A stretch of DNA of 64,000 nt from Phocaeicola dorei (GTDB lineage: Bacteria; Bacillota_I; Bacilli_A; RFN20; CAG-826). The DNA is taken from positions 15,913-79,912 of the forward strand of contig CAVGUB010000111.1 in assembly GCA_963632375.1 (NCBI GenBank), written 5' to 3'. The translations under genes and the position numbers were made by a program. The notes under the pieces were generated by a model. The model had not been told where the DNA came from, made no database searches, and saw nothing but the letters and a program-made list of their open reading frames with translations. This document shows, piece after piece, positions 2,543 to 19,172 of this stretch (the stretch's first letter is position 1; each line of letters opens with the position of its first letter).

Positions 2543-3304
2543 ATGTCAAATATTAGATATGATCTAATTCCTTCGCAAGGAATTACCGAAGTAAGTAAAA
2601 TATTTACTAAAAAGTTAGAGAAATACGGAATCAATGATTGGAAATATGGTATTTCTTGGACAAAAGTTTTATCTTCATTAAAGAAACATCTTACTGAATT
2701 TGAACAAGGTAATGATTTAGATGAAGATAACTTGCTACAAATTGCACATGTTGCGGAAGAAGCATTAATTCTTTGCGAGTATTATAAAATATACCCGCAA
2801 GGAGATGATCGTTTACTTGGTAACATTTCTGCTCCTAGAATATCATTGGATATTGACGATGTTTGTTTGGATTTTATTCCTGCTTTTGAGAAAAAGTTTC
2901 AAATAAAATTAAACAATTATTGGGACGGTTCATATTTAATGAATCAAATGTTGGATAAAGTAAAAGACGATAAAGATTTTTGGGTCAATTTACCCGTAAA
3001 GAATCTTCCTACATTTAATCCAACTTGTTATATCACTAGTAGAAGCATTTCAGTTGAATGGACTAAAGAATGTCTGGAGAAAAATGGTTTTCCTTGTGCT
3101 CCAGTATATTGTGTTCCATTTAATGAAAGCAAAGTTGATTTACTTAAAAGTAATAATATAAATATACACATTGATGATAAAGTTCAAAATTATCAAGAAG
3201 CGACTACTGCTGGTATATTTTGTTATTTAATGGATGCCCCACATAATCAGTGGTTTAAAGTTCCTCAACATCGTAGAATATATGATCTTAAATTAAACAT
3301 TTAA
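2543..3304 (+). CDS. fusion of a dATP/dGTP pyrophosphohydrolase-like N-domain (DUF5664-like) and a HAD-family 5'(3')-deoxyribonucleotidase
   Basis: The N-terminus (RYDLIP ... KYGINDWKYG ... LKKHL.EF.QGNDLDEDNLLQIAHVAEEALILCEYY) fits the DUF5664 pattern. The C-terminal half has a DxDxV nucleophile motif (LDIDDVCLDF) and a TSR ... IDD layout typical of NT5C-type nucleotidases. Confidence 0.65.
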   Translation: MSNIRYDLIPSQGITEVSKIFTKKLEKYGINDWKYGISWTKVLSSLKKHLTEFEQGNDLDEDNLLQIAHVAEEALILCEYYKIYPQGDDRLLGNISAPRISLDIDDVCLDFIPAFEKKFQIKLNNYWDGSYLMNQMLDKVKDDKDFWVNLPVKNLPTFNPTCYITSRSISVEWTKECLEKNGFPCAPVYCVPFNESKVDLLKSNNINIHIDDKVQNYQEATTAGIFCYLMDAPHNQWFKVPQHRRIYDLKLNI

Positions 3305-4835: not shown

Positions 4836-5138
4836 ATGTATCGTTTAGATAACGCTCTCACAAAATCTAATATCATATATATGATCATTATTGATACTCA
4901 TTTTTATATAGGGAGTACATCAAGACCTTTAAAAGAGAGATTAAGAGAGCATAAAAGATTATTATCAAAAGATAAACATTATAATAAAAAGATGCAGAAT
5001 TGGTTTAATTTAAATAAAGAATTCACAGTACAAGTAATGGAAGAAACTTCTAGATTTTGTTTGTGTGAAAGAGAACAATATTGAATCAATCTCCTACATC
5101 CAGATATTAACATTATTAACAAAGTAGCGGTATATTAG
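4836..5138 (+). CDS. free-standing GIY-YIG nuclease domain protein (100 aa), one in-frame TGA at 5082
   Basis: IYMIIIDTHFYIGSTSRPLKERLREH ... EREQY-TGA-INLLHPDINIINK. The GIY / YIG / R / H / E elements are present, and the TGA falls where GIY-YIG proteins carry E..(Y/F)W. It terminates at TAG 5136, directly before ATG 5140. Confidence 0.7.
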
Positions 5139-5139
5139 T

Positions 5140-5934
5140 ATGCAGATCACTTATGATGCTTTAATGTTAGGCAAACCAACCATCATTAAGGATAAACAAT
5201 TTCTTGCAACTAAGGATTATGTAGAACCTTTCTTTGAGTTTTTTAAATCTTTAACAGATAACTTTGAAATTCATGTAGAAATGCCAGAACAGGTTACAGG
5301 TTCAATTGATGCTAAAGATATTACATATAATAAAGTATGGTGTCAGGCTATTTTACCTCTAAATACTCAGTATTATGATCCAAAATTTGAGTATAATGAA
5401 GTATATGGTTTGATTTATTCTCTCGATGCTAAAATTCCAGAGATTAAATACTATCGAGCATATCAACACAAGACATTCAAAAATCTTTGTGTATTTGAAC
5501 CAACTTGGATTCAAACCCAAGAATTGAAACCTGAAGTAAAATATGATTATAATTTTAAAGAATTGTTGAGTAAACCAGAAACATTTTCTTCAAAATTAAA
5601 AAGTATTAAAAATACTTTCATAAAGCCAAATGAGTTAACCCCACTATTGGGTAAACTTATTGAAAAGTCATTACTTTATGATTATCAAAGTATTTCGAGT
5701 AAAGTTCAAATTGCATCTAAAGATATAGTTAAAGCATATCGTTTGGTAACATTGAAACCAACATCTAATTATTATGTTGATTCATCTACTGAAGGTTCTT
5801 TACATAACTTTTATTCTGCAGTTTGTTCACAAATAACTGAAGGTAAAGATATTATTTATAGATTTGAGAAAACCATTCTTGTAGGAATATTATTTGGAAT
5901 TATTAAATATGAGAGTAATAACAAAGCGGAATAA
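5140..5934 (+). CDS. hypothetical protein (264 aa)
   Basis: Uninterrupted ORF with ATG start and TAA stop; its 3' end overlaps the nrdD start. Confidence 0.7.
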   Translation: MQITYDALMLGKPTIIKDKQFLATKDYVEPFFEFFKSLTDNFEIHVEMPEQVTGSIDAKDITYNKVWCQAILPLNTQYYDPKFEYNEVYGLIYSLDAKIPEIKYYRAYQHKTFKNLCVFEPTWIQTQELKPEVKYDYNFKELLSKPETFSSKLKSIKNTFIKPNELTPLLGKLIEKSLLYDYQSISSKVQIASKDIVKAYRLVTLKPTSNYYVDSSTEGSLHNFYSAVCSQITEGKDIIYRFEKTILVGILFGIIKYESNNKAE

Positions 5935-8155
5935 AGAAGTAGAAGAATTTAATTTAGATAAAATTATACTTGCAATTAATAAAGCGTTTAGAAGTTCCGG
6001 ATTTGATACATGGGTTAATGAAGATAAAGTTGATGTCTTTGAAAGAATAAATGAACTTTTAATCGAATCTATAAATAAACTTTATGAAAGCAAAGACGTT
6101 GTTAATGTAGAAGACATTCAAGATTGCGTTGAAACAATTCTAATGCAATGTAAATGTTTTTCTGTTGCCAAGAGTTATATTCTTTATAGAGAGAAACATA
6201 ATGAAAGTCGATTTATCCAAGACAGATTGGATTATATGGACAAATATACTTCATCAGGAGATAATGCAGCAAGTTCTTCTGAAACAGATGCTAACGCAAA
6301 TGTTGCAATGAAAAATGTTGCAAATCTAGAAGGTGAAGTATACAAAGTACAAAATAGACTTGTTCAAAGAACAAGAATGAAGAAACGACTAAAAGAAATG
6401 TTTCCTGAAGTTGCCAGCGAATATGTCAAAGATTTGGAATCACATATTATTTATGCACACGATGAGGCAAGTTCACCAACAGTTAAAAACTACTGTATGG
6501 CAGCAACTCTATACCCACTTATGGTTGAGGGAACAGGAAATATTGATGGTGTAACACCAACTCCTCCAAACGATATTCAATCATTTAGTGGACAGGTTAC
6601 CAATTTAGTATTTCTTCTTTCATCTCAAGTACGTGGTGCTGTAGCTTTGGGTGATTATTTTGTAGCATTGAATTACTATGTAATTGCAGAATTTGGAAAA
6701 GATTGGTATAATCGTTTGAATGAAGTTACCACAACTAATACTTGTACAAAACAACGTACAATAAAAGATGCTATACGAAAAGGTATGAAACAATTTATCT
6801 ATGGAGTATCTCAACCAGCTGGTAATCGTTCATATAATTCACCGTTTAGTAATCTTAATTTCTTTGATAGTAATTATTTTGCAAGTATTTTCGATGAATT
6901 TCGTTATCCAGATGGCACTAAACCAGAATGGAAAGCGATTGATTCTTTACAAAGAATTTTTCTTGAACTTCATAGAGAATTGCGTTTAATTAAACCTTTG
7001 ACTTTTCCGGTAACAACGATGTGTTTACTAACTGATGGTAATGATATTGTTGACAAAGAATATAAAGAATTGTGTGCAGAAGAACTTTCTAAAGGAAGTA
7101 GTTTCTTTGTTTATTTAAGTGATTCTGCATCAAGTATCTCAAGTTGTTGTAGAGTTCGTAATGAAATTTCAGATAACACTTTTAGTTCTACAACAGGTTT
7201 GACCGGAATTATGACCGGATCTTCTAACGTTATCTCATTGAATTTCAATAGAATAGTACAGAATTGGTATAATTATATTTCTTGTGATGTTGAAGCTTGT
7301 GATAAGATAGGTAAAGCATCTCCAGAGTTTATTGGAAGTATTTTGACAACTGATAAAGAACTACAACAATCTTTAAAAGATTATTTGATTTCAATTCTAG
7401 AAAGAGTTTATAAATATCAAATTGCTTTTAAATCACTACTGTATGATATGGAAGACAAAGGTATGTTTTCTAGTTCAAATGCAGGATATATTTATACCAA
7501 AAAGCTCTTTAGTACAATTGGATTTATTGGATACTGTGAAGCTGCAGAATTTCTTGGCTATAATGTCAATTATAATCAATCTTATATAAAATTCGTACAA
7601 TTGTTATTGAGTACAATTGAGGAACAAAATCGAATTCATTCAATACATGATAAAAAACGTCCATGTATATTCAACAGTGAAGGTATCCCTGGAGAACAAT
7701 TAGCTGTTAAATTTTATAATTGGGATAAAAACGATGGTTATAAAGTTCCAGAAGATCAAAACTTATATAGCAGTTATTTCTTTAAACAATGGGATGATAA
7801 AATTTCTGTTCTAGATAAATTACGTTTACACGGAAAAGAAATTGCATCATATTGTTCAGGTGGTCAAGCCGCACATATTCATTTGGATTCACATCCATCT
7901 AAAGAACAATATTTACATTTACTTGAATTTAATGCTAAAAACGGAGTTAGTTATGTTGGATTCAATATTCCTATTAGTGAATGTAAAGATTGTGGACATG
8001 TAGTAAATGCTCCAATTAAAGAATGTCCTATTTGTGGAAGCAATCATATCGATTATTGGATAAGGATTATTGGGTTCCTTCGACCTTTAAGTTCTTATAG
8101 TAACGAGCGATATAAAGAAGCAAATAAAAGAATTTTTTCACATATTAAAGATTAA
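5909..8155 (+). CDS. nrdD: anaerobic (class III) ribonucleoside-triphosphate reductase
   Basis: ATG at 5909 begins an ATP-cone (MRVITKRNKEVEEFNLDKI). There is a C-terminal Zn-ribbon (CKDCGH ... CPICGS) followed by the glycyl-radical motif RIIGFLRP. The protein is long (748 aa) and contains no TGA. Confidence 0.9.
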   Translation: MRVITKRNKEVEEFNLDKIILAINKAFRSSGFDTWVNEDKVDVFERINELLIESINKLYESKDVVNVEDIQDCVETILMQCKCFSVAKSYILYREKHNESRFIQDRLDYMDKYTSSGDNAASSSETDANANVAMKNVANLEGEVYKVQNRLVQRTRMKKRLKEMFPEVASEYVKDLESHIIYAHDEASSPTVKNYCMAATLYPLMVEGTGNIDGVTPTPPNDIQSFSGQVTNLVFLLSSQVRGAVALGDYFVALNYYVIAEFGKDWYNRLNEVTTTNTCTKQRTIKDAIRKGMKQFIYGVSQPAGNRSYNSPFSNLNFFDSNYFASIFDEFRYPDGTKPEWKAIDSLQRIFLELHRELRLIKPLTFPVTTMCLLTDGNDIVDKEYKELCAEELSKGSSFFVYLSDSASSISSCCRVRNEISDNTFSSTTGLTGIMTGSSNVISLNFNRIVQNWYNYISCDVEACDKIGKASPEFIGSILTTDKELQQSLKDYLISILERVYKYQIAFKSLLYDMEDKGMFSSSNAGYIYTKKLFSTIGFIGYCEAAEFLGYNVNYNQSYIKFVQLLLSTIEEQNRIHSIHDKKRPCIFNSEGIPGEQLAVKFYNWDKNDGYKVPEDQNLYSSYFFKQWDDKISVLDKLRLHGKEIASYCSGGQAAHIHLDSHPSKEQYLHLLEFNAKNGVSYVGFNIPISECKDCGHVVNAPIKECPICGSNHIDYWIRIIGFLRPLSSYSNERYKEANKRIFSHIKD

Positions 8156-8161
8156 AATATT

Positions 8162-8512
8162 ATGAAACTTTCAGTAGTAAATACACGATTTGTTGTTAAT
8201 GAAGAAAAAAGAACAGTTGCTTGTATATGTGACTGTCGTTTTAAATATATTGTATTTGGCTCATATAAGAATGAGCCGTTCAATGTAACAGCAGTTGCCA
8301 AATGTCACACAAACGACAAATTTGATGTAGAGCTTGGCAAGAAAATTGCACGTGCTAAAGCTGAAAACAAAGCATATCAAATTTGTGCACTAGAATGTAA
8401 GTTGTACAAAAAACACTTAAACAGAGCTTTGGAAAACTTTACAGAGTTTGAAAGAAAAGCAAATAAATGTATTGAACACAATAAAGGATACATTGAAAGA
8501 ATTTCTGAATAA
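8162..8512 (+). CDS. hypothetical protein (116 aa)
   Basis: Uninterrupted ORF. The AKCHTNDKFDVELGKKIARAKAENKAY pattern recurs in small phage proteins of unknown function. Confidence 0.7.
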   Translation: MKLSVVNTRFVVNEEKRTVACICDCRFKYIVFGSYKNEPFNVTAVAKCHTNDKFDVELGKKIARAKAENKAYQICALECKLYKKHLNRALENFTEFERKANKCIEHNKGYIERISE

Positions 8513-8655
8513 TGGAAATTGATTTATTTGAAGAAATAAATAAGTATTATCAAACTGTAGAAGGTACAAATATTTCATATCAAGAAATATTTAATGTACT
8601 TTCTACAACATTTGATACTGTTTATTATATTACAACAATAGCATCTTATATATAA
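8512..8655 (+). CDS. small hypothetical protein (47 aa)
   Basis: Below the track cutoff. The ATG overlaps the upstream TAA, and its own TAA overlaps the next ATG (TAATG at both ends), which fits the local coupling pattern. Confidence 0.35.
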   Translation: MEIDLFEEINKYYQTVEGTNISYQEIFNVLSTTFDTVYYITTIASYI

Positions 8656-8849
8656 TGTATATTTGGCTTATCTTTTCCATTTTATGTTTTATTAGATGTA
8701 TATTTTATTTAAAATCTGGATTAAAAGATTATAAACTGTACTATTCTATATACAAATCTAAGTTTCTTTTAGTTTTGATTTGTTTTTTCGAGGTAATGTT
8801 GTATTTAACCCTTAGTTTAGTTGGTTTATATTATTTTATTATTGGATAA
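8655..8849 (+). CDS. small membrane protein (64 aa, two hydrophobic segments)
   Basis: Track ORF with hydrophobic stretches (IWLIFSILCFIRCIF and LLVLICFFEVMLYLTLSLVGLYYFII); TAATG junctions on both sides. Confidence 0.5.
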   Translation: MYIWLIFSILCFIRCIFYLKSGLKDYKLYYSIYKSKFLLVLICFFEVMLYLTLSLVGLYYFIIG

Positions 8850-8965
8850 TGAAAACTGGAAAAAGAAAAATTCATTTAAGAAAATTTAAAGACTTTAAAC
8901 GATGATGAAAGTCTTTAACAAGTTATGAAAAAGATAAAATTTTAAATGGAACAAAAAGAATTTAA
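8849..8965 (+). CDS. small basic hypothetical protein (38 aa) with two in-frame TGA
   Basis: The ATG overlaps the upstream TAA. It reads MKTGKRKIHLRKFKDFKR-WW-KSLTSYEKDK under code 4. Speculative. Confidence 0.3.
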
Positions 8966-9098
8966 AGTTGATTATATGGATTTCAATGGAGAGGTAAATG
9001 AATTGTACTTCAAAACTTTGTATAATGCCATAAAATATATAGAAGACAACAATTTATTTGCCTCCATTGAATTTTTAAATAAACCTTTAAATAAATAA
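8946..9098 (+). CDS. small hypothetical protein (50 aa)
   Basis: ATG 8946 to TAA 9096; fills an otherwise unannotated gap. Confidence 0.35.
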   Translation: MEQKEFKVDYMDFNGEVNELYFKTLYNAIKYIEDNNLFASIEFLNKPLNK

Positions 9099-9102
9099 AA
9101 TT

Positions 9103-9501
9103 ATGGGATTGGATAATGGATTCCTTATTCGAAAGATGAATAAGGAAGATATGAAAAAAGCTCCTTATTATAAGGAGAGCTGGTATAACCCAGAATCAGA
9201 ATCATTTGAACCTATTTATTGGAGAAAATGTTATAATCTTCGTGAAGCTGTATTTAGAGTTCTTCATGGGGAAAGAAACGATGTTTATGAGTATCAAGTA
9301 AAATCTAATGATATTCCTGAATTAATTGAAAATTTGAGACCATTCTTGAATAAGATTTATTGGGATAATCACGATGATTGTATTTGGGAATATGATGAAA
9401 TGTTTGACGAAATGTATAGGACGTTAGTATTCCTTGAATGGTTCCAATCTTATTATAAAGAACATCCTGAAATTGAAATGGTCTTTTACGATTCATATTA
9501 A
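9103..9501 (+). CDS. hypothetical protein (132 aa)
   Basis: Uninterrupted ORF; its TAA overlaps the nrdG ATG (TAATG). Confidence 0.7.
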   Translation: MGLDNGFLIRKMNKEDMKKAPYYKESWYNPESESFEPIYWRKCYNLREAVFRVLHGERNDVYEYQVKSNDIPELIENLRPFLNKIYWDNHDDCIWEYDEMFDEMYRTLVFLEWFQSYYKEHPEIEMVFYDSY

Positions 9502-9998
9502 TGTTAAAATATACAGATACAATGGTCACATTTAGTGAATTTCCAGATGAAATTTCACTATGTATAAATATTTCAAATTGTCCATGTAAATGTCCTGGTT
9601 GTCATTCTAGTTATCTTGCTGAAGATATCGGTGAGATACTAGATACAACTAGTTTGAAAACATTACTAGATAAGAATGAAGGAATTACTTGTTTAGGATT
9701 TATGGGTGGAGATAATTCTCCTAAAGAAGTTTCAAAACTAGCAGAATATGTTAAGAACAATTACAACATAAGAGTTGGTTGGTATTCTGGTAGACAAGAA
9801 TTATCTCCAGATATAGATCTCAAGTATTTTGACTATTATAAATTAGGTCCTTATGTCGAAGAATTTGGCCCTCTTAATAATCCAAAAACAAATCAAAGAT
9901 TTTTTGCACGAGGTTCATTGCTTCATAAAATGGATGCAAATCCAATTGTCTTTTATGATATCACCGACAAATTTTGAGTAAATGATAAAAATTTATAG
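9501..9998 (+). CDS. nrdG: anaerobic ribonucleotide reductase activating protein (radical SAM)
   Basis: CPCKCPGCHS cluster near the N-terminus, as in NrdG activases. A TGA at 9975 lies 7 codons before TAG 9996. Under code 4 the protein ends at 9998; if this TGA terminates, the end is 9977. Confidence 0.85.
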
Positions 9999-10197
9999 AA
10001 AAGAAGGTTGGATTTTGAATCCAAAAGACAATGTTGTAAATAGTATTTTGCAACGTTGTGAAAGTAATGATGGAATTTGTCCATGTAAACACCCCGATAA
10101 TGATGGGGATTTACATTGTCCATGTGAAAGTTATAGATTAAGAGATAAATGTTGTTGTTCTTTATATATTAAAGAAAATGGAAATATGGATAATTAA
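9982..10197 (+). CDS. ferredoxin-thioredoxin reductase catalytic-subunit-like protein (FTR/FDR-like, 71 aa)
   Basis: The CPC ... CPC ... CCC spacing (GICPCKHPDNDGDLHCPCESYRLRDKCCCSLY) matches the CPC-CPC-CxC cysteine signature of FTR catalytic subunits. Confidence 0.6.
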   Translation: MIKIYRKEGWILNPKDNVVNSILQRCESNDGICPCKHPDNDGDLHCPCESYRLRDKCCCSLYIKENGNMDN

Positions 10198-10369
10198 TTA
10201 CACAGATAATTGTGTAGATAAATATGTTGTTCCTGAACAAGAAAATGTTCAAGAATATATCTATAATAGTTTGAACTATGAAGGTAAAGATATATCATGG
10301 ATTTCAGATGATAAACCTATAGTTCGAAATACTTATTATTGGACAAAAGAAGGAATTAAAAAATCATAA
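10178..10369 (+). CDS. hypothetical protein (63 aa)
   Basis: ATG-initiated ORF overlapping the previous gene by 20 nt; TAA stop. Confidence 0.5.
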   Translation: MEIWIINYTDNCVDKYVVPEQENVQEYIYNSLNYEGKDISWISDDKPIVRNTYYWTKEGIKKS

Positions 10370-10370
10370 T

Positions 10371-10802
10371 ATGAAAGTTAAAATTGTAAATAAATCAAAT
10401 CACAGACTTCCAGAATATGCAACATCTGGAGCTGCTGGAATGGATCTTAAGGCAAATATTTCAGAACCCCTAGTCTTGAAACACGGAGATGTTCAAGTAA
10501 TACCTACAGGTTTGCATGTAGCAATTCCGGAAGGATATGAAATACAAATTCGTTCAAGAAGTGGGTTGGCTGCAAAACATAAAGTGTTCTGCCTTAATTC
10601 TCCAGGAACCATAGACGTGGATTTTACAGGAGATGTAGGTGTGATCCTGGCCAATTTTGGTCAAGAAAATTTTGTCGTAAATCCTGGCGATAGAATTGCA
10701 CAAGCCGTTCTTAATAAAGTAGAACGTATTGAATGGGATGAAGTAGCTTCTCTAGATAGTACTGATAGAGGAGATGGTGGATTTGGTAGTACTGGAATTT
10801 AA
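10371..10802 (+). CDS. dut: dUTP pyrophosphatase (trimeric dUTPase)
   Basis: Canonical motifs: AAGMDL, RSGLA, PGTIDVDFTGDVGVIL, GDRIAQ, RGDGGFGSTG. Confidence 0.9.
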   Translation: MKVKIVNKSNHRLPEYATSGAAGMDLKANISEPLVLKHGDVQVIPTGLHVAIPEGYEIQIRSRSGLAAKHKVFCLNSPGTIDVDFTGDVGVILANFGQENFVVNPGDRIAQAVLNKVERIEWDEVASLDSTDRGDGGFGSTGI

Positions 10803-10814
10803 AAATTAAATATT

Positions 10815-11306
10815 ATGGATTGGATTAATTATTTGAAAAAACTTGGATTTTCTGAAAGCGATCTTAAAAATATGTCATTTAAATATTCTGAAAACGGTAT
10901 TCCTGTTATCAATATTGAAAATGGTGTAGATATGCTTAAAAAAGCTGATGATACAATTACAGATGCTTTCAGAAATGCTAAATTGAAATCTGAAGAAAGA
11001 CCTGCTTATGATGTTGAAGAAAAAACTTCTAATTTTAAACCTATTTCCGAAGAGTTTAAAGAAGAGAATACATTTAAATCATATAGTGGTATTACTATGC
11101 TAACACCTAATGATTTCTTGCTTAACAATTATGCAGGAAAAACAATGCTTGGGACAACTACTCCACTTAATTTTGAGTGTTTGGATAAAAATAACTGTAT
11201 CCTTCCCGGTATTACAGATAAGCAACTTGCTGAGGTCCTTCTTCTTAGGAACAAAACAAATCCAGATATTAAAGAAACTTTATTAGATCTTCTTGACTTG
11301 CTTTAA
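10815..11306 (+). CDS. hypothetical protein (163 aa)
   Basis: Uninterrupted ORF followed by a hairpin terminator. Confidence 0.7.
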   Translation: MDWINYLKKLGFSESDLKNMSFKYSENGIPVINIENGVDMLKKADDTITDAFRNAKLKSEERPAYDVEEKTSNFKPISEEFKEENTFKSYSGITMLTPNDFLLNNYAGKTMLGTTTPLNFECLDKNNCILPGITDKQLAEVLLLRNKTNPDIKETLLDLLDLL

Positions 11307-11313
11307 AATATAT

Positions 11314-11341
11314 AGCTAGGGAGAAATCCCTAGCTTTTTTA
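11314..11341 (+). terminator. rho-independent terminator
   Basis: AGCTAGGGA-gaaa-TCCCTAGCT 9-bp stem followed by TTTTTT, 8 nt after the stop at 11306. Confidence 0.7.
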
Positions 11342-11343
11342 TT

Positions 11344-11496
11344 ATGAATAAACAAGAATTTTTTAATTCATTAACAGACAAACAAAAATCGTATCTGCAA
11401 TTTCTTCTAGATGAGAGCTATCAAAATGGATATGACGCAGGTACTTTAAAAAATTATTACAATGAGTATAGTAAAACGAATTTCACTTTTTGCTAG
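11344..11496 (+). CDS. small hypothetical protein (50 aa)
   Basis: ATG 11344 directly after the terminator and TAG stop at 11494; overlaps the ligase start. Speculative. Confidence 0.3.
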   Translation: MNKQEFFNSLTDKQKSYLQFLLDESYQNGYDAGTLKNYYNEYSKTNFTFC

Positions 11497-12649
11497 AGAC
11501 TCAAAAGGAAAGATTAGACAGATAAATATTACATGTGATTGGAACGAACAATTCCAATTTTATTCAATTAATCGAGAATCAGGATTAAAAGGCGGTAAGT
11601 TTATAACTCATACTCCACTTGAAATTAAAAAGGGAAAAGTTAAAAGAACTATTTCTCAACAAATGGAACTTGAATACAATAGTCTTGTAAAGACATATCT
11701 TGATAAAGGGTATATTGAAGGAGATGTTTCAACTATTGAAAAAACTCTTCCAAAAAACAAAACAAATCAAGAAGGTGTTATAAAACCAATGCTTGCAAAG
11801 TTAATTCAAAGTGTTCCAAAAAGTACTTTAGATAAAGTAACTCATTGATATTCAAGTCGTAAGATAGATGGAGTGAGGGCTTTACTCTATATGAAAGACA
11901 ACACTTTACACTTTGCTTCAAGAGGTGGTGGTGTGTATGATTATGCAACTTCGCATATTCGTAATAATCTAAAGTTGATTGAATACTTTAAACAAAATCC
12001 AAATCTTGTTTTGGATGGAGAATTATATGTCTTTGGAAAATCTCTACAAACATTATCAGGTTGTGCTAGATTAGAAGAAGGAGAAATCCCATTTAAATTG
12101 CAGTATTATATATATGATGTTGTAGATCTTGATAAAACTTTTACAGAACGATACAAAATAATTCAAAAAGTAAAACAAGATTTAAATTTAGGTTTTGATC
12201 CCAATAAGACGTTTAATGATTTTGATATTTTCATTCAAATTCTTCCACAAGAATACATTGTAAACGATGAAAAAACAATGTGGAATCTTCATAATCAATA
12301 TGTATCTGAAGGTTGGGAAGGTGCAGTATTAAGAGATCCTACTAAGAAATATAACCCAGGTGCACGTGATATGATTAAATTAAAATCTAGATTGGATTCA
12401 GAATTTGAAACAATCGGATATGAATTTGGTTTACGTGGAATAGAAGATATTGTCTTTAAAATGAAGACAAAAGACGGAAAAGAATTTAAAGCAAAACCAG
12501 TTGGATCAAAAGAAGTAAAAGAATCATTATTCAATCATATAAATGATATAATTGGACAAATGGCAACTTGTACATATTTTTATCTTTCTGATGATGGCAT
12601 TCCACTTCAACCTGTTTGAAAATGTGTTAGAAATAAAATTGATATGTAA
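11462..12649 (+). CDS. ATP-dependent DNA ligase (395 aa), in-frame TGA at 11846 and 12617
   Basis: Track ORFs 11462..11848 and 11873..12619 share a frame. The junction reads THWYSSRKIDGVRA, so the adenylation motif I (KxDG) lies just after a TGA. DGELY, EGAVLR and IKLK motifs follow. It ends at TAA 12647, overlapping the next ATG. Confidence 0.85.
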
Positions 12650-12948
12650 TGAAGGATAAAAAATTTTCTAAAGAAGAACTAAAAAAATATATAATAAATT
12701 ATAATAAACTTCAAGATGATGTTTATAAAGCAAGTTCTGTTTTAGGTCCTATTTTTGATTCCCCAATTTTTACAGGTTATGAACTAATAATTCATAACCT
12801 TTTAGTAAAAATGTACGGTGATTTAGGTGCAGACCTTCTAGAAGAATATATTTTTAAGCAAATAGATATGGGATTTGACACCCTCTTTGATATTTTATCT
12901 TCTGAAGAATATGACTCAGACCGAATTAGATATACTGATTCAGAATAA
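12649..12948 (+). CDS. hypothetical protein (99 aa)
   Basis: Uninterrupted ORF with ATG start and TAA stop. Confidence 0.6.
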   Translation: MKDKKFSKEELKKYIINYNKLQDDVYKASSVLGPIFDSPIFTGYELIIHNLLVKMYGDLGADLLEEYIFKQIDMGFDTLFDILSSEEYDSDRIRYTDSE

Positions 12949-13492
12949 AAATATATTTTATATATACAATCTAAAACCAATAACCCCAGAGAATAAAGAT
13001 GAGTATCTTATTGTAGTAAATAATGGATATAAATTAAATACAGGTTCTGAGGGAATTATTGTTTTGGAATTAAAAGATTGGTTTGAACACAGTATTAAAA
13101 GTGATTTACTTGCTTGAATTTGTGCTTGTCTTAATAAGAAATACATTATTAAAGAACATGTCAAATTACTTTGTCAAACCAAACCTCTTGAATTGCGTAA
13201 AGAAATAGATAAAATAAAATCTGTTTTAAATATGACCCCAGAAGAATCATATTATTTTCTGGTTAATCTAACTTACGCAATTCAAATAATTGAAAACCAT
13301 AAAATTACGAAATATAATGTGCTTAAAGATTATTATAAATCAGTAAAATCTTTAAGTGATCCAAAAGAAATTACAGAGTGTTTTATGGTGTATTACGAAC
13401 CTTTAAAAAAGTTGTTAGGTAAATATACTGATGAACTTTTACTTAAAGAGAAAATAAAGAAAATAAGTGTAAAATTGAAAAATGATAAGTAA
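12911..13492 (+). CDS. hypothetical protein (193 aa), in-frame TGA at 13115
   Basis: Track ORFs 12875..13117 and 13193..13492 share a frame. The gap was read in frame with only one TGA. The first ATG is at 12911. Confidence 0.55.
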
Positions 13493-13736
13493 AATTTTTT
13501 TCTTTCATGCTTCTTGATGTGGTCCTTGTAGACTCTTAGAAAAAGAATTAAAGGACTTTTCTTATTTACCTATTGATGAGTTTGATGCAGATGAAAATGA
13601 AGAACTCTGCAACAAATTCAACATTAGAAGTCTCCCTACTTTGGTTTTTATAAATTCAGATGAACAAGAGATTGGACGTAATGTTGGATTTATAAAAACA
13701 TCTGATTTAATCGAAAAAATAAAACAATACGATTAA
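13482..13736 (+). CDS. thioredoxin (84 aa); the active-site Trp is encoded by TGA at 13515
   Basis: Absent from the track because of the TGA. It reads MISKIFFFHAS-TGA-CGPCRLLEKEL ... FNIRSLPTLVFI, i.e. WCGPC plus the cis-Pro loop (LPT) of thioredoxins. Confidence 0.85.
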
Positions 13737-13891
13737 TGAAATTTAAATATGAAGTTACAAATCCCGGTGTAGATACTAGAATCGTAACTGTTACAGCAAA
13801 TACAAAACTAGAAGCTGTGCAATTACTCGAAGAAATGTATCCACGCAATGGAGGTTATGAATACAATTTTATAAATAATGAAGATAATTAA
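13736..13891 (+). CDS. small hypothetical protein (51 aa)
   Basis: The ATG overlaps the thioredoxin TAA (TAATG); TAA stop at 13889, overlapping the thyX start. Confidence 0.35.
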   Translation: MKFKYEVTNPGVDTRIVTVTANTKLEAVQLLEEMYPRNGGYEYNFINNEDN

Positions 13892-14894
13892 TAGTTCTGT
13901 TACTGTTGTAGAAACAAACCCTTCTTTAAAGGGTATTTTTGAGGCCATAGAGAGAGCCGGACGTGTTAGCTATGCGAGTGTAGGTACAAGGTATTTTCGT
14001 GTCGAAAATAAGCCTGAAAACCAGCAAATTTTAGAGAAATTGAAATCTAATTCAGAAATACTTTGTAAAGAAGGGCCATTCTTCGATAAAGCATATTATG
14101 TGTCCATTCCACATAAGTTAATTACAAATTATCCTGAACTTCTTGCACATAAAGAAGAAAGTCGTTCGGAGAGTTCATATTACGAGAATGTTACATCTGA
14201 AGCATTTGTCAATATGATTAAAAAGAATGGGCATTTAAGTGTATTAGAATTTGGTACAGTTTATCTTTATTTGGATAAACGTGATGCTGATGATGTTATG
14301 ATCGATAAATACGATCATAATCCATATTCCAAAATTAATTTTGATGATAAAGATAATTTGTATATTACTACTAATATGCGAGTTATTGTAGAAAACAATT
14401 GGGAAGAGGATTTGAAATATCTTTGTACACCTTGTGTTTATCATGAAAAAAGAATTACTGCGGAATTCGTTTGTTCAAGATCTGTATCACACGAACTTGT
14501 AAGACATAGAAGTCTATCTTTTATTCAACAAAGTCAAAGATATTGTGCATATAATGCTCAAAAATTTGGTGGAAATGTTAGTTTTGTTTTACCTAGTTGG
14601 CTAAAAGATTCTAATAAACCATATAGTAAAATGTGTGTTGAAAGTAGATTGTGGTATCGAGCTATGATTGCTGCAGAAAACACTTATATGTCTCTTTTAA
14701 AAGAAGGTAGTAAACCACAATTTGCAAGAGAAGTTCTTCCTAATTCAACATCTACTATAATTGATGTATGTGGTTTTGAAAGTGATTGGAAACATTTCTT
14801 TGAATTGAGATGCTCACAAAGAGCACATCCTGATATAAAAGTTTTAGCTGATAACCTTTTAATAGATTTTAAATCACTTAATTATGCAATTTAA
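13878..14894 (+). CDS. thyX: flavin-dependent thymidylate synthase
   Basis: ThyX signature RHRSLSFIQQSQRY (RHRxxSxxxxSxR); 338 aa with no TGA. Confidence 0.9.
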   Translation: MKIINSSVTVVETNPSLKGIFEAIERAGRVSYASVGTRYFRVENKPENQQILEKLKSNSEILCKEGPFFDKAYYVSIPHKLITNYPELLAHKEESRSESSYYENVTSEAFVNMIKKNGHLSVLEFGTVYLYLDKRDADDVMIDKYDHNPYSKINFDDKDNLYITTNMRVIVENNWEEDLKYLCTPCVYHEKRITAEFVCSRSVSHELVRHRSLSFIQQSQRYCAYNAQKFGGNVSFVLPSWLKDSNKPYSKMCVESRLWYRAMIAAENTYMSLLKEGSKPQFAREVLPNSTSTIIDVCGFESDWKHFFELRCSQRAHPDIKVLADNLLIDFKSLNYAI

Positions 14895-17467: not shown

Positions 17468-18513
17468 TGATTGACTTAAAAAATATTTTCGTTATTGAAA
17501 AACAATGGGATTATGTCCAACGTAAATATATATTAAATAAAGTTTGTATGACTGCATTACGCCATAATTATTTATGGTATGATGCAGCTTTTACATTTCA
17601 AAAAATAACATATAATCAAAATCCGGTTCCAGAAAATTCTAAAATTATTTTTACCAAAAATGCTTTGTTTCCTAAATTTAAATTGGAAACAACATCCTTT
17701 AAAAGAAGTATAAAACCAAGTACAGCTGATTGTATTGTTTGTGGAGAATTGAAAGAAGTAAAAATACCTAATTCGTATTTGTATTTACAAAGCGGGGAAC
17801 AAATATATTTTGTTTATAAATCAGATATTTGGCAAACTTTAAATATTAAAGTAGAAGATAATAACGCTATTATTCGTTATTTGATTAATAATAAATTTAT
17901 ATCAGATAAATATACTATTTTACCTAAAGATAGTATATTTGCATACATTAATCCAAAATCTAAAGAAGTTGATTTAAACTTGTTAGAAGATCCAAAATTC
18001 AAAGATAAAATATATTTGGATGTAAATTTTAGTAGTCAAATTTCAAAACAAGCTAATTCTCTTACAGATGAGAACTTTACAATGATAAAAGATTTGTTTG
18101 CTTCTCGTGATATATCAAGTAAAGAATTGGGTTTAAAAACGCTATGTACATTTAATTGGGTAGAATGCCCAATAAAGATAACTAGTTTACTTGTAAAATT
18201 TGAACGTTCTTTAAAAGAAACAAATGCTTGGAAATCAATTGCAGTAAAAACACTATTGAAAAATATAAATTTTCCAGCAGGTTCTTATTATAGTTATACT
18301 GATTTCATTAGTAGTTTGTTATATAAATCAACTAAAACGGATTTTACATTAACCCCAATTGATAAAGAATATATACAAAAAGAAGTATATAGTTATATAG
18401 AAAATATTATAATGAAAACATTTAATACATCTAGTTTTAGTTATCTTGATAAATTTGGAATTAACTTCTCTTATAATTTATGTATAGAAGACAAACAAAA
18501 CAATACGCAATAG
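17467..18513 (+). CDS. hypothetical protein (348 aa)
   Basis: Uninterrupted ORF coupled by TAATG to the AAA gene; TAG stop at 18511. Confidence 0.7.
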   Translation: MIDLKNIFVIEKQWDYVQRKYILNKVCMTALRHNYLWYDAAFTFQKITYNQNPVPENSKIIFTKNALFPKFKLETTSFKRSIKPSTADCIVCGELKEVKIPNSYLYLQSGEQIYFVYKSDIWQTLNIKVEDNNAIIRYLINNKFISDKYTILPKDSIFAYINPKSKEVDLNLLEDPKFKDKIYLDVNFSSQISKQANSLTDENFTMIKDLFASRDISSKELGLKTLCTFNWVECPIKITSLLVKFERSLKETNAWKSIAVKTLLKNINFPAGSYYSYTDFISSLLYKSTKTDFTLTPIDKEYIQKEVYSYIENIIMKTFNTSSFSYLDKFGINFSYNLCIEDKQNNTQ

Positions 18514-19172
18514 GAGGATTAAAAAATAGTGGAAAAGACGAAAGTGCCAAAATGCTTAATTATTGTTTAAGTACACCTAAAATACTAAGAACTTATTGAG
18601 GTTATAAACACCTCAATAAGTTCTTTAATAAATATAAAATTTTGTCTTTTGCCACATCTCTAAAACGAACATTAGCAACAATGCTTAATGTTTCGTTTAA
18701 TCAATTTAATAATAGAGATTTTAAAGAAAATTATTATATTTTTCTTCCCAATCTACATATTACCAAAACACCTAATAAACAATATGTTATAACTAATAAT
18801 AAGTTTAATAGATTGGTTAATAAAAAGGATTTATCCTTTCTAAAAACTAACTATATAACTATCAGACAATTATTACAAGTGTTTGGTACAAATATTGCTA
18901 GGGAATTTTTTGGAGATAAATTATGGATATTAACAACACTTAAAAATGTTGATAATGTCATTATTTCAGATTTACGTTTTAATGTAGAATACGAAACATT
19001 AAAACAAAAGAAATTTAAAACCATTTATATCAATCGCAATGTTTCCACTCCCGGACTACATAACAGTGAAAAAGAAGTTTATGATTTGTATAAAAATAAT
19101 AAATTTGATTATGTAATTGATAATAATGGTTCGTTAAAAGATTTGTTTAATTCTATTAAAAAATTAGTGTAA
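18480..19172 (+). CDS. deoxynucleoside monophosphate kinase (T4 gp1-like), in-frame TGA at 18597
   Basis: The track shows only 18642..19172. Extending the frame upstream through one TGA reaches ATG 18480 and exposes the P-loop IGGLKNSGKDESAKML. ISDLRF and HNSEKE fit dNMP kinases. Confidence 0.7.

Follow-up and report, generated by a model that had tools for sequence, protein, structure and literature searches.

Class III ribonucleotide reductases (RNRs) are usually taught as formate enzymes. Two other sources of reductant, one running through thioredoxin (Trx) and one through ferredoxin, a ferredoxin:disulfide reductase (FDR) and NrdH, are to our knowledge each described from only one or two organisms. 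The closest precedent for the locus considered here is the second of these, the system of ferredoxin, FDR, NrdH and NrdD3 that Wei and colleagues reportedly described in Methanosarcina barkeri in 2015. Our locus lies in a 64,000-nucleotide stretch of DNA (the window; C111:15913-79912) of C111, a 143-kb contig of 30.8% GC that is assigned to a 1.27-Mb genome bin and is a crAss-like phage in which TGA is recoded to tryptophan. The window encodes a class III RNR (NrdD), its activase (NrdG), a thioredoxin and a 71-residue cysteine-rich protein that we identify as a minimal relative of ferredoxin:thioredoxin reductase (FTR), hereafter the mini-FTR. We consider it fairly probable that ferredoxin, the mini-FTR, thioredoxin and a thiol-type NrdD form a chain that powers the synthesis of deoxynucleoside triphosphates (dNTPs) by the phage under anaerobic conditions.

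The Methanosarcina system resembles that of the phage in that a class III RNR is encoded along with a CPC...CPC...CxC FTR-like protein and a protein of the thioredoxin fold. In both, the last motif of the reductase lacks histidine (CYC in the Methanosarcina FDR), and this FDR is the best match of the mini-FTR family profile. The differences are nonetheless substantial: the FDR of Methanosarcina acetivorans has 173 residues and a rubredoxin domain, whereas the phage protein has 71 and no such domain; the methanogen NrdD3 lacks the active-site glutamate that the phage enzyme possesses; the methanogen redoxin is NrdH-like, whereas that of the phage is a WCGPC thioredoxin encoded elsewhere in the genome; and the phage genes belong to a virus of anaerobic gut bacteria rather than to Methanosarcina. 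The NrdDs of Neisseria bacilliformis and Thermotoga maritima have the Tyr-Cys pair, the SCCR and N-x-E motifs and the glycyl motif in common with the phage NrdD, which differs from them in adding an ATP-cone and a CxxC-x10-CxxC zinc site. The N. bacilliformis thioredoxin is reduced by an NADPH-dependent thioredoxin reductase (TrxR), whereas the phage operon is accompanied by a ferredoxin-type reductase gene. The catalytic subunit of plant and cyanobacterial FTR (PF02943; 1DJ7, 2PVG) aligns with the phage protein at all six cysteines and matches it in fold, with a template modelling (TM) score of about 0.58 on the query and a probability of up to 0.98; however, the phage protein is shorter by about 40 residues, the catalytic histidine of the CHC motif is replaced, and no variable subunit was seen. 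A member of the same clade occurs in the cultured crAss-like phage PhiCrAss001, whose gp5 is 56% identical to the phage mini-FTR; it lies in a tRNA array, in a genome with a class II (B12) RNR where the window phage has NrdD and NrdG instead. The authors annotated gp5 as a 'putative ferredoxin-thioredoxin reductase' and described it as unrelated to replication (PMC6235969). In the literature that we searched, we found no paper tying a phage FTR-like gene to an RNR.

The phage NrdD and its activase

The nrdD reading frame contains no in-frame TGA, and its product matches the Pfam models NRDD (5e-75) and ATP-cone (1e-17) as well as the NCBIfam model TIGR02827 (583 bits, cut-off 568). The best match in the PDB is the T. 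maritima NrdD (1.5e-50); the NrdDs of Prevotella copri and phage T4, which are formate enzymes, match weakly. In the alignment, Tyr195-Cys196 of the phage falls on T. maritima Tyr124-Cys125 and Ser412-Cys413-Cys414-Arg415 on T. maritima 328-SCCR-331, where T4 has MGCR. Phage Glu591, which lies in the sequence F-N-S-E-G-I-P-G-E (Asn589-x-Glu591), aligns with T. maritima Glu495 (F-N-I-E-Q-V-P-A-E), a position occupied by tyrosine in T4, leucine in P. copri and isoleucine in the bin's own NrdD. The glycyl-radical motif RIIGFLRP, which includes Gly722, aligns with RIVGYLVP of T. maritima, and a zinc ribbon of the form CxxC-x10-CxxC lies upstream of it.

The SCCR motif is unique to the subclass NrdDh, of which the thioredoxin-using N. 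bacilliformis enzyme is a member, and Wei et al. distinguish NrdD2, which has the third cysteine and the glutamate, from NrdD3, which has the cysteine without the glutamate (PMC4493059). Glu438 of the N. bacilliformis enzyme is the proposed base (PMC4390871); we take T. maritima Glu495 to be its equivalent. Because the third cysteine of SCCR and Glu591 replace the formate-type residues, we assign the phage NrdD on its sequence to the thiol type, NrdD2/NrdDh, and neither to the formate type nor to the methanogen NrdD3. A preliminary description of this DNA, made from the sequence by a model, had suggested a formate-independent enzyme parallel to the methanogen class III RNR and had named the classification of active-site residues as a check. 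The formate-independent part is borne out by SCCR and Glu591, which place the enzyme outside the formate subclass; the parallel to the methanogen enzyme has to be given up, as Glu591 is present. The Tyr-Cys pair, SCCR, N-x-E and the glycyl-radical glycine are found in all 57 NrdDs recovered from mini-FTR viral loci, and SCCR is kept in 57 of 58 related NrdDs. The cellular NrdD of the bin (C45:1137-3458) is of the canonical formate type with an MGCR finger loop, although the bin may not be the phage's host.

The match to nrdD is split or stretched in the nearest relatives, L091 (10001-12817), L002 and L003, which points to the insertion of introns, inteins or homing-endonuclease genes; in L091, residues 1-594 cover 2.8 kb. 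The window nrdD is uninterrupted; a 100-residue GIY-YIG gene (window 4836-5138) lies one gene upstream of it.

NrdG carries the radical-SAM motif C27-x3-C31-x2-C34 and scores 149.1 bits against TIGR02826, for which the cut-off is 151.7; its partner NrdD is a TIGR02827 protein, as the family expects. Under the standard code nrdG ends at 9977. We rejected the TGA at 9975-9977 as the natural stop: it aligns with a conserved tryptophan (F-W-x-N-D) for which homologues use TGG, and for this reason we take 9998 as the true end of the gene. Left unsuppressed, the TGA would cost NrdG its last seven residues, and the suppressed gene overlaps the start of the mini-FTR by 17 nt.

The mini-FTR

The open reading frame (ORF) of the mini-FTR is intact and encodes the cysteine pattern CPC-x10-CPC-x8-CCC, in which Cys33, Cys35, Cys46, Cys48, Cys57 and Cys59 correspond one-to-one to FTR Cys55, Cys57, Cys74, Cys76, Cys85 and Cys87. 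We collected 30 homologues of 54-83 residues, several of which carry a PF02943 tag. In an alignment that includes the 29 longest of them (30 rows), Cys57 is found in 29 of the 30 rows and the other five cysteines are invariant, such that both redox-active disulfide cysteines are kept in homologues besides the four cluster ligands. A profile of the family matches the M. acetivorans FDR (4TPU) in the PDB with an E-value of 7e-6 and FTR catalytic chains with E-values of 8e-5 to 2e-4, and the Pfam model FeThRed_B (PF02943) is matched by 14 of the 30 homologues, with a best E-value of 3e-7. An AlphaFold2 model of the 71-residue protein has a predicted local distance difference test score (pLDDT) of 81. 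A Foldseek search of the PDB with this model returned FTR or FDR structures as all of its top 11 matches (probability 0.75-0.98, TM score on the query 0.46-0.59), and the remaining matches had probabilities of at most 0.04. The FTR homology proposed in the preliminary description is therefore supported by family profile and predicted-fold searches, on the basis of which we identify the protein as a genuine minimal FTR/FDR-like protein, whose predicted cluster ligands are retained together with the redox-active pair of cysteines.

The mini-FTR family comprises 726 cluster representatives at an E-value of at most 1e-3 in a library of 1.84 billion proteins. Longer matches in this library, examined for Rosetta-stone fusions of the mini-FTR with thioredoxin or NrdG, were uninformative, the extensions being homing-endonuclease domains, DUF3310 or unmatched. 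Cellular occurrence amounts to one contig of a metagenome-assembled genome in a narrow-pattern scan of genome contigs and one other genome among 399 genomes of the bin's phylum in a profile search; the mini-FTR was not found in four genomes of the bin's genus.

Linkage across phages and the proposed electron chain

A scan of IMG/VR with the mini-FTR family alignment gave 124 confirmed loci, of which 80 were kept for counts. The mini-FTR lies at most 600 bp from nrdG or nrdD on the same strand in 46 of these 80 viral loci. The commonest arrangement is nrdD-FTR-nrdG (25 loci), followed by nrdD-nrdG-FTR (6), nrdD-Trx-FTR-nrdG (4), nrdD-FTR-Trx-nrdG (3) and nrdD-nrdG-Trx-FTR (1); with at least five gene orders among the linked loci, the adjacency outlasts rearrangements. 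Linkage to nrd genes is found in 27 of 40 mini-FTR clusters at 90% identity and in 13 of 20 at 80% identity, and contigs with the mini-FTR range from crAss-like phages of about 100 kb to phages of about 412 kb. A thioredoxin gene stands inside the mini-FTR/nrd cassette in eight loci, and three more share the window-like arrangement of nrdD-nrdG-FTR with a thioredoxin gene several kb downstream. Of the 12 viral loci closest in NrdD, which came from a single-sequence NrdD scan, only three have a mini-FTR within 10 kb. The preliminary description had tied both the FTR-like and the thioredoxin genes to nrdD, and this stands for the former, which is near nrdD or nrdG in 46 of 80 loci, but not for the latter, which in this lineage is syntenic with thyX. 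Thioredoxin is encoded immediately upstream of thyX in nine loci (the window, L001-L003, L073, L085, L090, L094 and L095), and this adjacency in the crAss-like lineage is independent of the presence of the mini-FTR. We know of no requirement of ThyX for thioredoxin.

The Prevotella Lak megaphages (MK250015-MK250029) encode a mini-FTR homologue (45% identity) together with fragmented matches to this type of NrdD. The two are about 86 kb apart in Lak-B5.

From the observed gene identities, active-site residue types and linkage across phages, we infer cluster binding by the mini-FTR, its electron donor, thioredoxin as its substrate and NrdD as the final client, and with these every electron-transfer step of the proposed chain. 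In this chain, the radical-SAM protein NrdG would install a glycyl radical on Gly722 of NrdD, and each turnover would oxidise the Cys196/Cys413 pair beside the thiyl Cys414, the base being Glu591. The Cys196-Cys413 disulfide would be re-reduced by thioredoxin, either the 84-residue phage protein or that of the host. The mini-FTR, as a minimal [4Fe-4S] ferredoxin:disulfide reductase, would accept electrons one at a time from the host's reduced ferredoxin (or flavodoxin), and its Cys35-Cys59 disulfide, next to the cluster, would reduce thioredoxin. The low-potential ferredoxin pool of the anaerobe would in this way feed dNTP synthesis, and both formate and NADPH/TrxB would be bypassed. The chain had been put forward as self-contained, and this part does not hold: no ferredoxin-type motif, flavodoxin or second redoxin was found on the phage contig, so the electron donor must be host-derived.

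Phages that encode the mini-FTR apart from nrd genes bear on what the chain might serve. In 32 of the 80 loci, mostly from PhiCrAss001-like 100-kb phages, there is no nrd gene within 10 kb of the mini-FTR. Of ten unlinked records, six have an NrdD of the same type at another position; the one compared is 59% identical to that of the window. Three complete genomes (PhiCrAss001, cr106_1 and one IMG/VR genome) contain the mini-FTR and neither NrdD nor NrdG; each encodes a large RNR subunit of class I/II type and no small subunit. In PhiCrAss001 this protein, gp69 (L098, 75053-77629), is annotated as a B12-dependent, class II RNR, and its gene lies between those of a PD-(D/E)XK exonuclease and a dUTPase, the slot that nrdD and nrdG occupy in the window. 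Judged from these sequences, crAss-like phages have exchanged one RNR class for another and retained the mini-FTR. Class II RNRs are likewise thiol-dependent, and a thiol-dependent RNR is encoded in all eight complete mini-FTR genomes examined. Since some of these eight lack NrdG, we favor a role general to thioredoxin-dependent RNRs over one specific to NrdG. A broader proposal, which we make tentatively and regard as possible rather than probable, is that the mini-FTR of about 65 residues is a widespread and hitherto unrecognised phage adaptor that connects host ferredoxin to any thiol-dependent RNR (class III NrdD2 or class II NrdJ). If true, gut phages would gain NADPH- and formate-independent dNTP synthesis, and in TGA-recoded phages like this one the TGA at the catalytic tryptophan of the partner thioredoxin would also couple the onset of the chain to the code switch.

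Several observations weigh against the ferredoxin-to-NrdD chain and the identifications on which it is built. Searched alone, the 71-residue protein has no match in Pfam (even at an E-value of 10), NCBIfam or PHROG, and the only matches in a phmmer search of the PDB were six FTR catalytic chains with marginal E-values of 0.01-0.05. The Foldseek E-values of the FTR and FDR matches are just 0.03-0.1, a modest level that we attribute to the small size of the protein. The histidine of the CHC motif of plant-type FTR is replaced by cysteine (CCC) in the window protein; across homologues this middle residue is C, Y, I, V, E or H, and the M. acetivorans FDR has CYC. The function of the mini-FTR clade is predicted from sequence and fold, and the only reductant that we know to have been demonstrated experimentally for an NrdD2 enzyme is Trx/TrxR/NADPH rather than ferredoxin. 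In the window, 3.3 kb separate the mini-FTR from the thioredoxin gene, which adjoins thyX and can be read through only if its TGA is suppressed. About 40% of loci show no linkage of the mini-FTR to nrd genes, PhiCrAss001 gp5 with its place in the tRNA array being one example. Lastly, five close relatives with the same NrdD and NrdG, and mostly with the thioredoxin, have no mini-FTR genome-wide (four of them are at least 91% complete) in a search that found the gene in four of four positive controls; because these phages do without it, the mini-FTR is accessory and not required.

Some of these observations would be expected if the mini-FTR were a general redox helper that keeps host thioredoxin reduced from ferredoxin during infection, whether to protect against oxidative stress or to supply many thioredoxin clients, with RNR as one beneficiary among others and the linkage to nrd genes a matter of module synteny. 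We regard this as unlikely. The 32 loci that have no nrd gene within 10 kb agree with a general helper, as does the PhiCrAss001 gene, which is set in a tRNA array with a Dps-like gene nearby and is labelled an auxiliary metabolic gene by its authors; most cassettes, moreover, contain no phage thioredoxin, and host thioredoxin must therefore serve as the substrate. A general helper would, however, leave unexplained that the mini-FTR usually lies between nrdD and nrdG or overlaps nrdG across several rearrangements, and that all eight complete genomes encode a thiol-dependent RNR.

The 25 nrdD-FTR-nrdG cassettes without a redoxin gene raise a different question, namely whether the mini-FTR reduces NrdD directly and without thioredoxin, either at the active-site disulfide or at those cysteines of the zinc ribbon or C-terminus whose reduction has to precede glycyl-radical formation. 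An activating role of thioredoxin has been reported for the class III enzyme of Escherichia coli (PMC4390871), which would fit such a step. Direct action nonetheless seems to us quite doubtful given that known FTR and FDR enzymes work on thioredoxin-fold substrates, that a thioredoxin gene adjoins the mini-FTR in eight cassettes and that class II RNRs, enzymes of a different structure, also occur with the mini-FTR.

It is very unlikely, in our judgment, that the neighborhood has no functional meaning, NrdD drawing on formate or on host Trx/TrxB and the FTR-like and thioredoxin genes serving other ends. The closest relatives do manage without the mini-FTR, and the reductant of the T. maritima enzyme was debated (PMC4493059), but the linkage is strong and tolerates rearrangement, and the active-site glutamate and third cysteine stand in place of the formate-type residues. 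Least plausible of all is that the 71-residue protein donates electrons to NrdG or helps to handle its cluster, instead of being a disulfide reductase: nrdG is its commonest immediate neighbor (45 loci at 600 bp or less, often overlapping) and NrdG requires a low-potential one-electron donor, but neither NrdG nor NrdD accompanies the mini-FTR in PhiCrAss001, cr106_1 and another complete phage, and the redox-active disulfide cysteines of FTR are conserved in addition to the four cluster ligands.

If the ferredoxin-to-NrdD chain is true, a ferredoxin-linked reductase travelling with a thiol-type RNR would be a third viral rewiring of host redox metabolism for DNA synthesis, with carriers among many gut and rumen phages, including crAss-like, Lak-type and approximately 410-kb phages. 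PhiCrAss001 gp5, until now regarded as an unrelated auxiliary gene, would gain a function as well, and this in a phage that is in culture and amenable to genetics.

TGA recoding and the gene setting

Long ORFs cover a fraction of 0.53 of C111 under the standard code and 0.99 once TGA is read as sense, whereas the rest of the bin's contigs follow the standard code and are already fully open. A 73-nt tRNA with anticodon UCA (C111:2745-2817, outside the window), labelled as a selenocysteine (SeC) tRNA by ARAGORN, is likely the TGA suppressor of the phage; a tRNA-Trp(CCA) of the bin was found on C133. The plus-strand block of the window (1-19.4 kb), which consists of replication and nucleotide-metabolism genes, uses TGA for 13 of its 79 tryptophan codons and TGG for the other 66, and the minus-strand block, which encodes giant crAss-type virion proteins, has 121 TGA versus 45 TGG.

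The recoding is of direct consequence for the thioredoxin. Codon 12 of its gene (13515-13517) is a TGA at precisely the tryptophan of WCGPC, and there is no ORF under translation table 11. The catalytic tryptophan is also encoded by TGA in two other TGA-recoded phages, L003 (about 13786-13788) and L068 (about 9784-9786), whose thioredoxins are 57% and 33% identical to that of the window, respectively; other homologues have TGG at this position. With TGA at the catalytic tryptophan, the thioredoxin can be made solely when the suppressor tRNA is active. The codon may serve as a gate through which the suppressor tRNA controls thioredoxin synthesis; alternatively, its position may be chance.

The features discussed are listed in Table 1. 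The preliminary description had placed nrdD, nrdG, the FTR-like gene and the thioredoxin gene in one island, and all four exist on the plus strand at the coordinates given; left unstated was that nrdG and the thioredoxin gene need TGA to be read as tryptophan. Of the further dNTP-metabolism genes claimed for the island, dut, thyX, the dNMP kinase and the N-terminal diphosphohydrolase domain were confirmed, but the nucleotidase half of the fusion has no Pfam match. An ATP-dependent DNA ligase is also among the confirmed genes of the window.

Table 1. Features of the window, with coordinates counted from its first nucleotide
Feature	Coordinates	Strand	Basis
dATP/dGTP diphosphohydrolase N-domain	within 2543-3304		confirmed
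nrdD, class III RNR with N-terminal ATP-cone, predicted thiol type (NrdD2/NrdDh)	5909..8155	+	Pfam, NCBIfam, residue mapping
132-aa ORF directly 5' of nrdG	9103..9501	+	no Pfam or PHROG match
nrdG, radical-SAM activase (nrdG3 type)	9501..9998	+	TIGR02826, CxxxCxxC, C-terminal alignment
mini-FTR, predicted ferredoxin:thioredoxin (disulfide) reductase, 71 aa	9982..10197	+	cysteine alignment, profile, fold
dUTPase (dut)	10371..10802	+	Pfam dUTPase 1e-28
Short thioredoxin, 84 aa, active site W(TGA)CGPC	13482..13736	+	Pfam Thioredoxin 2e-13 (code 4)
thyX, flavin-dependent thymidylate synthase	13878..14894	+	Pfam Thy1 1e-30
dNMP kinase	18480-19172		confirmed

The 132-residue ORF is matched by tblastn upstream of nrdG in L002, L003, L091 and L092, at 36-57% identity, and may be a further part of the module.

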